This document shows, in pieces, positions 1,349-2,217 of a DNA stretch of 64,000 bases. The stretch comes from an uncultured Candidatus Saccharibacteria bacterium. GTDB taxonomy: Bacteria > Patescibacteriota > Saccharimonadia > Saccharimonadales > Saccharimonadaceae. The notes under the pieces were generated by a model that made no database searches, had not been told where the DNA came from, and worked only from the letters and a program-made list of their open reading frames with translations. Where the stretch lies: the NCBI GenBank assembly GCA_947302355.1, contig CAMYUU010000001.1, positions 465 to 64,464 on the forward strand. Direction: 5' to 3'. A program made the translations under genes and the position numbers. The first letter of the stretch is position 1. Each line of letters starts with the position of its first letter.

Positions 1349-1413
1349 ATACATTGTATTGGTTTCGTTACTAGTTGCAACTTAAAAAAGTATCTCGGGA
1401 AAGGACTAGTTGT

Positions 1414-2217
1414 ATGAATGCTTGGAAAAACTCTCAGGAAGAAGTGCTCTGGCCGCATAATCTCTTGTTTGAGGTCAGCACCGATAAGACGTGTGTGCAA
1501 GGGCCGATAACGAAAGACCAGATGAGAGGGCTCGGATTCCTGTTGTCCATCTTACCCAAGCGCGAATGCTCGATTATAATCAAGCGCTACAAGGAGTATG
1601 AAACGATTGGAAATATCGCTGGCGACACGAAAAAGCCCGCTCTTTGGGTAAAAAGAACCCTCGATAGGAGCCTCGCCAAGCTTCGGAGGCCAGAGTGCCA
1701 GATTTTTTACAATCGAGGCTACAGCGTTGCGATTGGAGTCCTGAAGCTTGACGCGGAATCTGCTAAACTCGCGACTCGAGAGGCAGAATTGGCAGCTCGG
1801 GAAACGAAGCTTTTAGCCAATGAGGCAGCGTTGGATTCCCTAGAGAGGTTCATAGCCAAAGCAAAAGAGGTTAGGGATTCTACGTCTTCACTGAGGTCAA
1901 GGGAAGACGAACTTTGGGTTGCCATGGATGAGGTGGCGCGAGCACTCGAAATAGCTGAAGCGTCCGAAAGCGAAGACACCAAAGAGCTTCTTGGGGAGCT
2001 GAAAATGGCACAGTACAGCTCCGTGTCAATCCGCGAGTTGGGACTGTCGAACCGTTGCTTTTGCGCCCTTTACCGTGTAGGGATCCGTACGATTAGCGAG
2101 TTGGGCAAATTATCTAAGCAAGATTTGCTCAACGTCCGCAATCTGGGTAAAGTTAGCGTGCAAGAAATAGCTGATGCTTTTAGAACCTACACAGGGTTTG
2201 CGCTCCCAGAATACTAG
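1414..2217 (+). CDS. DNA-binding protein: sigma-70 region-4-like HTH + coiled coil + RNA polymerase alpha-CTD-like domain
   Basis: ORF track 1375..2217 (TTG); first ATG at 1414. LLSILPKRECSIIIKRYKEYETIGNIAGDTKKPALWVKRTLDRSLAKLRR fits the sigma70 region-4 pattern. The middle is a heptad-like Ala/Glu/Leu coiled coil. SIRELGLSNRCFCALYRVGIRTISELGKLSKQDLLNVRNLGKVSVQEI resembles the RpoA C-terminal HhH domain. G+C visibly higher than neighbours. Confidence 0.6.
   Translation: MNAWKNSQEEVLWPHNLLFEVSTDKTCVQGPITKDQMRGLGFLLSILPKRECSIIIKRYKEYETIGNIAGDTKKPALWVKRTLDRSLAKLRRPECQIFYNRGYSVAIGVLKLDAESAKLATREAELAARETKLLANEAALDSLERFIAKAKEVRDSTSSLRSREDELWVAMDEVARALEIAEASESEDTKELLGELKMAQYSSVSIRELGLSNRCFCALYRVGIRTISELGKLSKQDLLNVRNLGKVSVQEIADAFRTYTGFALPEY

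Follow-up and report, generated by a model that had tools for sequence, protein, structure and literature searches.

The 64,000-nt stretch of DNA analyzed here (the window) comes from a genome of Candidatus Saccharibacteria and carries a gene whose product joins, in this order, sigma-70 region 4, a long Ala/Glu/Leu-rich helix and the C-terminal domain of the RNA polymerase alpha subunit (alpha-CTD). The placement of this protein as a diverged, horizontally acquired member of a large, unnamed and mostly phage-borne family is well supported. The initial annotation of the DNA had described the fusion as an orphan, which it is not, since a sizeable family shares its domain order; the guess made there that it was phage-type fits the occurrence of the same architecture in ESM Atlas clusters labelled Uroviricota and on IMG/VR phage contigs. 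The family is catalogued yet unstudied, and the window protein is a further member of it. The gene, its signals and the domains of its product are listed below; positions are those of the whole window and residues those of the 267-aa form that begins at ATG 1414.

1320..1348, plus strand: sigma-70-type promoter, TTGACC-17 nt-TATACT with an extended -10 TG (consensus scan)
1401..1405, plus strand: ribosome-binding site AAGGA, 8 nt before ATG 1414 (from the sequence)
1414..2217, plus strand: coding sequence, 267 aa plus stop; the form from TTG 1375 is 13 residues longer
1450..1476, plus strand: family signature helix WPHNLLFEV, residues 13-21, directly before region 4 (alignment A1; model helix 15-21)
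1513..1689, plus strand: sigma-70 region 4 (4.1 and 4.2 helix-turn-helix), residues 34-92, with a diverged recognition helix (Pfam, homologues and fold)
1720..2010, plus strand: Ala/Glu/Leu-rich helical linker, residues 103-199, a putative coiled coil (model and composition)
2005..2199, plus strand: alpha-CTD (helix-hairpin-helix), residues 198-262 (PF03118, PDB sequence and fold matches)
2244..2272, no strand: bidirectional intrinsic terminator made of AAAA, an 8-bp GC-rich stem, a GAGA loop and TTTTT (sequence and RNA fold)
1321..2296, no strand, approximate edges: segment with promoter, gene and terminator that has no counterpart in the sister genome G144 (synteny)

Domain architecture of the fusion protein

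The C-terminal domain was recognized by profile, sequence and predicted structure. RNA_pol_A_CTD (PF03118), whose cut-off is 23.8 bits, scored 56.3 bits (E 2.7e-15) over residues 198-255, solved alpha-CTDs in the PDB were matched by sequence at E 2.5e-7, and the C-terminal domain of the AlphaFold2 model matched 3gfk, 1lb2, 7vpd and 1z3e with TMt values of 0.72-0.93 and root mean square deviations of 1.1-1.6 Å (Foldseek). The NCBIfam rpoA models matched the C-terminal 60-90 residues only, far under cut-off.

The sigma region 4 is more diverged. Sigma70_r4 (PF04545) scored 19.5 bits on the window protein alone, below the cut-off of 24.1 (E 7e-4), so that of the two Pfam matches expected in the initial annotation only the alpha-CTD rose above its cut-off. 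The identity of region 4 was assigned because the protein is collinear with canonical region-4 proteins and is predicted to have their fold. The N-terminal 110 aa aligned with residues 102-203 of homologue P0019 at 35% identity (pairwise alignment, E 1e-15), and this alignment crosses the canonical region 4 of P0019, VTRERVRQMEAKALRKLRHP. Both PF04545 and PF03118 were matched by all 16 aligned members of the family (alignment A1), with a best region-4 E of 2e-18, and the family profile matched the C-terminal region 4 of RpoD/SigA in the PDB at E 1e-16 to 1e-12. The N-terminal domain of the model matched region-4 structures (8jzt, TMt 0.89; 3vfz, TMt 0.86), a match to be read with the caveat that the model was built on alignment A1, which itself contains canonical region 4. 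The mean pLDDT of the model was 82.6, with values above 90 over residues 30-100 and of about 90 over residues 200-260. An AlphaFold comparison had been proposed with the initial annotation, and in it both domains were matched to solved structures; the two domain assignments made there are upheld.

Between the two domains the model has a continuous helix from residue 103 to 156 (pLDDT about 90), followed by helices 163-181 and 187-199 at lower confidence. The composition of residues 100-200 (A 18%, E 16%, L 14%) agrees with the Ala/Glu/Leu-rich linker described earlier. The linker may pair as a coiled coil; the in-house heptad score applied to it had no discriminating power.

The fusion protein is probably not part of RNA polymerase, because it has neither sigma region 2 nor the alpha N-terminal domain. 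Sigma70_r2 gave no match, with only 33 residues preceding region 4, and the alpha N-terminal domain (PF01000, PF01193) gave no match in the window protein. The genuine rpoA (316 aa) and rpoD (324 aa) of the host lie elsewhere in its genome. A recent duplication of these host genes was considered as the origin of the fusion and rejected: the N-terminal domain has no BLAST similarity to host RpoD, and host RpoA is 24% identical over a gapped alignment.

Two further region-4 proteins of the host were noted. Host RpoD (L142, contig C1, 1462-2436, minus strand) ends in KALSKLRKNKETKK and not in the usual KALRKLRHPSRS tail, so that region 4 of the phage family appears closer to a textbook RpoD tail than that of the host does. 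The genome also encodes a second region-4 protein that is free-standing (L143, contig C3, 1438-2466, plus strand); in its 342 aa an N-terminal Sigma70_r4 (E 7e-12) precedes a HARE-HTH domain (E 4e-10).

The phage-borne family

Close homologues were sought in a collection of 5.8 billion proteins, where two were found: P0001 (97% identity, 267 aa) and P0002 (81% identity, 260 aa). An exhaustive phmmer search of 1.8 billion representatives gave 1,414 matches, most of them to the alpha-CTD alone; 16 of the best 150 also covered the N-terminal half. Homologue P0043 aligned in one collinear stretch (residues 25-267 in the numbering of the 280-aa query, against 126-354), and single-stretch alignments from region 4 through the alpha-CTD were obtained for P0043, P0126 and P0137. 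Identity in the collinear family alignments was 27-36%. An extra N-terminal XRE helix-turn-helix was present in 5 of the 16 members of alignment A1.

The signature helix directly before region 4, WPHNLLFEV in the window protein, fits the family motif [WYF]PxN[L..][L..]xx[hydrophobic], and its residues P14, N16 and L17 account for 3 of the 9 invariant columns of alignment A1. The WPxNLL motif was present in 35 of the 173 collected proteins and in 4 of the 5 homologues on phage contigs that are described below. Within region 4, residues L47, L90, R91 and P93 are near-invariant in alignment A1.

The association of the family with phages was apparent in several collections. When the ESM Atlas was queried with homologue P0043 in place of the window protein, which is absent from it, at least eight clusters of 53-222 members carried PF04545 and PF03118, with or without HTH_3, and were labelled 75-100% Viruses/Uroviricota; the neighbours of P0043 there also included Bacillota proteins with an added AlkZ-related domain. 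A scan with a four-member alignment found five IMG/VR phage contigs with a gene that matches from region 4 to the alpha-CTD. Both Pfam domains were above cut-off in all five of these genes, one of which also matched GerE. The family genes on these contigs occupy early or regulatory regions, with the following neighbours:

L032: XRE regulators and a Lar-like protein
L033: SbcC-like and RecT-like recombination genes
L034: DnaB helicase upstream; terminase 1.7 kb downstream
L036: DnaD and DnaB
L038: primase-helicase upstream; terminase 3.2 kb downstream

With the window protein as query, no close relative was detected in IMG/VR or in the GTDB species representatives, and single-protein scans with P0043 and P0126 likewise gave no close relative in IMG/VR. 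Many phage proteins in BFVD are named after the alpha-CTD. A search of PHROGs with the window protein gave nothing significant, and GenBank phages gave one weak match, to the alpha-CTD only. Cluster look-up and profile search returned no name for the family. Literature searches found no paper on the sigma-4/alpha-CTD fusion, which Iyer and Aravind (2012) may discuss.

Family members also occur on a plasmid. The mobilisable plasmid NZ_CP034172.1 of Chryseobacterium taklimakanense has a sigma-4/alpha-CTD gene (L027, 5602-6486) between genes for a thermonuclease and a zincin-like (ArdC-type) metallopeptidase and upstream of a type IV coupling protein gene; the sole annotation of the plasmid copy is 'DNA-directed RNA polymerase subunit alpha C-terminal domain-containing protein'. 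RefSeq gives family proteins, for example WP_124785686.1, the same name, and they have the domain order and WPxNLL signature of the window protein. Typical members are phage-borne and retain both the canonical TRERVRQIEAKALRKLRHP recognition helix and the residues with which the alpha-CTD contacts DNA, whereas the window copy is a lone chromosomal gene in Saccharibacteria and does not retain them. Chromosomal fusions of region 4 and the alpha-CTD were detected in 3 of 400 other genomes of the same phylum, with different, longer N-termini and without the WPxNLL signature; the search took in one unpublished genome, G300, on which no conclusion depends.

Small phage and bacterial regulators offer a partial likeness. 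ArpU/RinA-type late activators and LuxR/GerE regulators are, like the window protein, small proteins built on a region-4-type helix-turn-helix, and some phage homologues of the window protein lie 1.7-3.2 kb upstream of terminase; unlike the window protein, both groups lack an alpha-CTD. GerE gave no match to the window protein at E up to 10 (Pfam), and ArpU gave none in Pfam or PHROGs. Among the metagenomic proteins collected, P0003, P0016 and others have 5-8 tandem alpha-CTD matches (570 aa with seven; 1031 aa with eight).

The gene and its insertion in the host genome

The host is a Nanosyncoccus-like member of Candidatus Saccharibacteria from the ruminant gut, and its genome comprises 727 kb in 17 contigs (96% complete). 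Relatives of its gyrB came from metagenome-assembled genomes of Candidatus Saccharibacteria and Nanosyncoccus from the gut of sheep, goat, yak, buffalo and deer. The window DNA was present in bovine and goat gut runs and in food-production, soil and compost metagenomes, from 14 studies in all.

The gene is a single-gene insertion of about 1 kb with its own promoter and terminator. In G144, a genome of the same genus, an otherwise empty gap of 76 nt separates the orthologue of the neighbouring surface-protein gene from the gyrA stop; homology of the window to G144 stops near 1320 and restarts inside gyrA, which leaves about 1 kb extra in the window. The fusion gene was not found in 3 genomes of the same genus or in 150 of the same family, where only the rpoA C-terminal domain was matched. 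Horizontal acquisition, as the initial annotation had proposed, is concluded mainly from synteny, because the flanking genes are adjacent in G144 and the gene was not found in relatives. No flanking direct, inverted or terminal repeats and no target duplication were found around the insertion, and neither phage genes nor an integrase were seen near the gene, which stands alone between the surface-protein gene and gyrA. The arrangement is stable in nature, since a bovine run yielded a 3.3-kb contig that has the same gene order and shows 13 differences over 800-2800. In X4 and X8 the stretch is covered piecewise, and gaps in contig cover carry no meaning. The open reading frame is intact in P0002 and in variants from several ruminant studies.

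The expression signals of the gene are intact. The open reading frame reported at 1375..2217 on the plus strand is present in the window (open reading frame list), and its start is better placed at ATG 1414, 13 codons downstream of TTG 1375; ATG 1414 is the probable true start because the AAGGA ribosome-binding site lies 8 nt upstream and P0001 and P0002 both begin there. The promoter that had been reported for the gene was recovered with agreement at 10 of 12 consensus positions and sits at the left edge of the segment missing from G144. The bidirectional terminator reported with it was likewise recovered, its hairpin proper (2248-2267) lying with an A-run and a T-run between the convergent stops of the fusion gene and gyrA (stop 2297), and is predicted to serve both genes. 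In RNA fold prediction the terminator bases lie within a 13-bp hairpin, and the whole of 2218-2296 folds with -24.9 kcal/mol; the consensus scanner did not list the terminator. One 151-nt metatranscriptome contig (X20) spans 1671-1814 and is a weak hint of expression, as its strand is not readable and DNA carry-over is possible.

The G+C content of the gene, which had been described as visibly higher, is indeed raised: it is 0.499, where the mean of the window is 0.434 (sd 0.037 for 804-nt windows). It is not unique, as 5% of such windows are equally high. The raised G+C lends modest support to acquisition.

Several features of the neighbourhood were also recorded. The product of the gene at 73-1239 (minus strand) is 388 aa long, starts with a signal peptide and has a membrane anchor at its C-terminus; Pfam gave no match. 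Its orthologue stands beside gyrA in G144, and genome G096 has an unrelated Gly/Tyr/Asn-rich surface protein in its place, indicating that the locus downstream of gyrA is variable. A 16-nt inverted repeat, 81% complementary, at 1241-1274 lies over the ribosome-binding region of the surface-protein gene and yields GGAGGAG-like sequences on either strand. In G144, G096 and G001 (loci L029, L030 and L031) the 3' end of gyrA is only 0.3-1.4 kb from a contig end, and the G096 contig begins with the reverse complement of the 5' end of 16S rRNA, which suggests that an rRNA operon probably adjoins the locus and breaks assemblies. Elsewhere in the window Rfam identified the following RNA genes:

11082-11436, plus strand: tmRNA
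14827-15166, minus strand: RNase P RNA class A
25442-25515, minus strand: tRNA
28828-28900, plus strand: tRNA
52490-52563, minus strand: tRNA

Recognition residues and possible modes of action

The reading that we favour, at about even confidence, takes the fusion protein for a free-standing regulator, derived from phages, that binds DNA in promoter regions. Its mechanism is inferred from a likeness to the RNA polymerase holoenzyme, in which sigma region 4 and the alpha-CTD lie side by side on UP/-35 DNA (PDB 3N97, 1LB2); these are the same two domains, and 3n97 and 1lb2 were among the fold matches of the window-protein model. The window protein differs in joining both domains in one 267-aa chain through a long helix, in having neither sigma region 2 nor an alpha N-terminal domain, and in the change of -35-reading residues and of two UP-element-contact residues. 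Such a regulator, possibly dimeric through the long helix, would place its helix-turn-helix in the major groove and its alpha-CTD in the adjacent A/T-rich minor groove, in the two-domain arrangement adopted on UP/-35 promoter DNA in the holoenzyme, and could thereby occlude or mark promoter-upstream DNA.

Several residues expected to contact DNA differ in this copy. Its recognition helix has PALWVKRTL in place of the TRERIRQIE of host RpoD, within the wider stretches PALWVKRTLDRSL in this copy and TRERIRQIEAKAL in host RpoD. These differences are equivalent to R584A, E585L, R586W, R588K and Q589R in E. coli numbering. Residues R584, E585, R588 and Q589 of E. coli are -35-reading residues of region 4 in primary sigma factors. 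In the alpha-CTD, the UP-element DNA-contact positions (the '265-determinant') are those of E. coli R265, N268, C269, G296, K298 and S299. Alignment to the B. subtilis alpha-CTD showed the equivalents of R265, G296 and S299 to be kept, and the N268-equivalent is Y in both P0001 and P0002.

Divergence between close homologues is also uneven. Between the window protein and P0002, 25 of 59 positions are different in region 4 and 20 of 201 in the rest of the protein (Fisher p 9e-8), about four times more in region 4; the helical linker differs at 6 of 100 aligned positions and the alpha-CTD at 6 of 68. A 7-residue in-frame deletion in the P0002 linker is the only indel relative to the window protein. 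Strain variants in two runs showed 7 of 8 and 6 of 8 changes to be non-synonymous, including P93S at a nearly invariant position. The replaced -35-reading residues and the fast-evolving helix-turn-helix make the canonical -35 element an unlikely target of this copy.

Some of these observations tell against a DNA-binding regulator. The -35-reading residues of region 4 are replaced in this copy, so that a promoter contact like that of RNA polymerase cannot be assumed; any of the roles suggested in the initial annotation (decoy, anti-activator or phage-type transcription hijacker) may apply. Two of the six positions of the 265-determinant are altered in the alpha-CTD (N268 to C and K298 to V), along with C269 to A, and DNA binding may be weakened as a result. 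The mostly non-synonymous strain changes also fit relaxed constraint, and no DNA-binding or expression experiment on any family member was found in the literature.

Two other explanations were considered, and we regard both as unlikely. The protein could dock on RNA polymerase, its region-4 module binding the core beta flap tip in place of host sigma region 4 and its alpha-CTD adding an upstream contact, so that the host enzyme would be redirected or blocked and DNA would not be occupied independently. In its region 4 the family most resembles the C-terminal region 4 of primary sigma factors, where sigma docks on the beta flap. This copy retains the core residues L47, L90, R91 and P93 while its DNA-reading positions vary, a pattern consistent with a preserved protein contact. 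Retargeting of the host polymerase through region 4 and the flap is known from phages: AsiA/MotA and gp33 of T4 make use of sigma region 4, of the beta flap and of the -35 region (PMC6755090, PMC2988021). The parallel is a functional analogy, as the T4 proteins have no sequence or fold relationship to the window protein and bind region 4 or the flap, whereas the window protein contains region 4. Against docking, the invariant WPxNLLxx[IV] helix is similar to the hydrophobic side of ERLLRAIFGEK, the flap-tip helix of the host beta subunit, with which it shares LLxx[IV], and this N-terminal helix may fill the flap groove of region 4 intramolecularly and so block docking on the polymerase. The second explanation is decay: the gene would be a remnant of a phage or mobile element without function in this bacterium. 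The sub-threshold Pfam score of region 4, the loss of its DNA-reading residues, the non-synonymous strain changes, P93S among them, and the very narrow distribution all agree with decay, but the reading frame is intact in all variants seen, even in P0002 with its single in-frame indel, the linker and alpha-CTD are conserved with divergence concentrated in one domain, and promoter, ribosome-binding site and terminator are intact in a gene that holds the same position in samples of several studies.

A domesticated anti-phage decoy seems quite improbable to us. On this explanation a crippled copy of a phage regulator would pair or compete with the sigma-4/alpha-CTD protein of an incoming phage and disturb the phage programme, with the helix-turn-helix changing fast through an arms race. 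The phage origin of the family, the conserved pairing helix beside a hypervariable helix-turn-helix, the excess of non-synonymous strain variants and the occurrence of the gene, within so small a genome, as a one-gene cassette complete with signals are in keeping with this. The support is nevertheless purely circumstantial: the PADLOC match is weak (E 3.6e-4) and is to an alpha-CTD-like part of PglW, the IMG/VR scan found no Saccharibacteria phage with a close relative, and hypervariability is explained equally well by decay or recombination. In its full form, in which the episymbiont domesticated a crippled phage regulator as a decoy that keeps the pairing helix and alpha-CTD and interferes with incoming-phage transcription, the proposal is highly unlikely; if true, it would be a new kind of defence by transcription-factor mimicry.

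The free-standing promoter-region regulator remains our preferred reading of the window protein. The copy itself shows that a Saccharibacteria genome of 0.73 Mb can acquire a lone gene of the family, that the helix-turn-helix can lose its canonical -35-reading residues while the alpha-CTD and linker are conserved, and that divergence between close homologues is concentrated in the helix-turn-helix. The family is abundant in phages and unites in one small protein the two modules through which RNA polymerase reads the upstream promoter half. Its mechanism, once worked out, would reveal a new way in which phages handle host transcription, whether by blocking promoters, by substituting for region 4 or by regulation.

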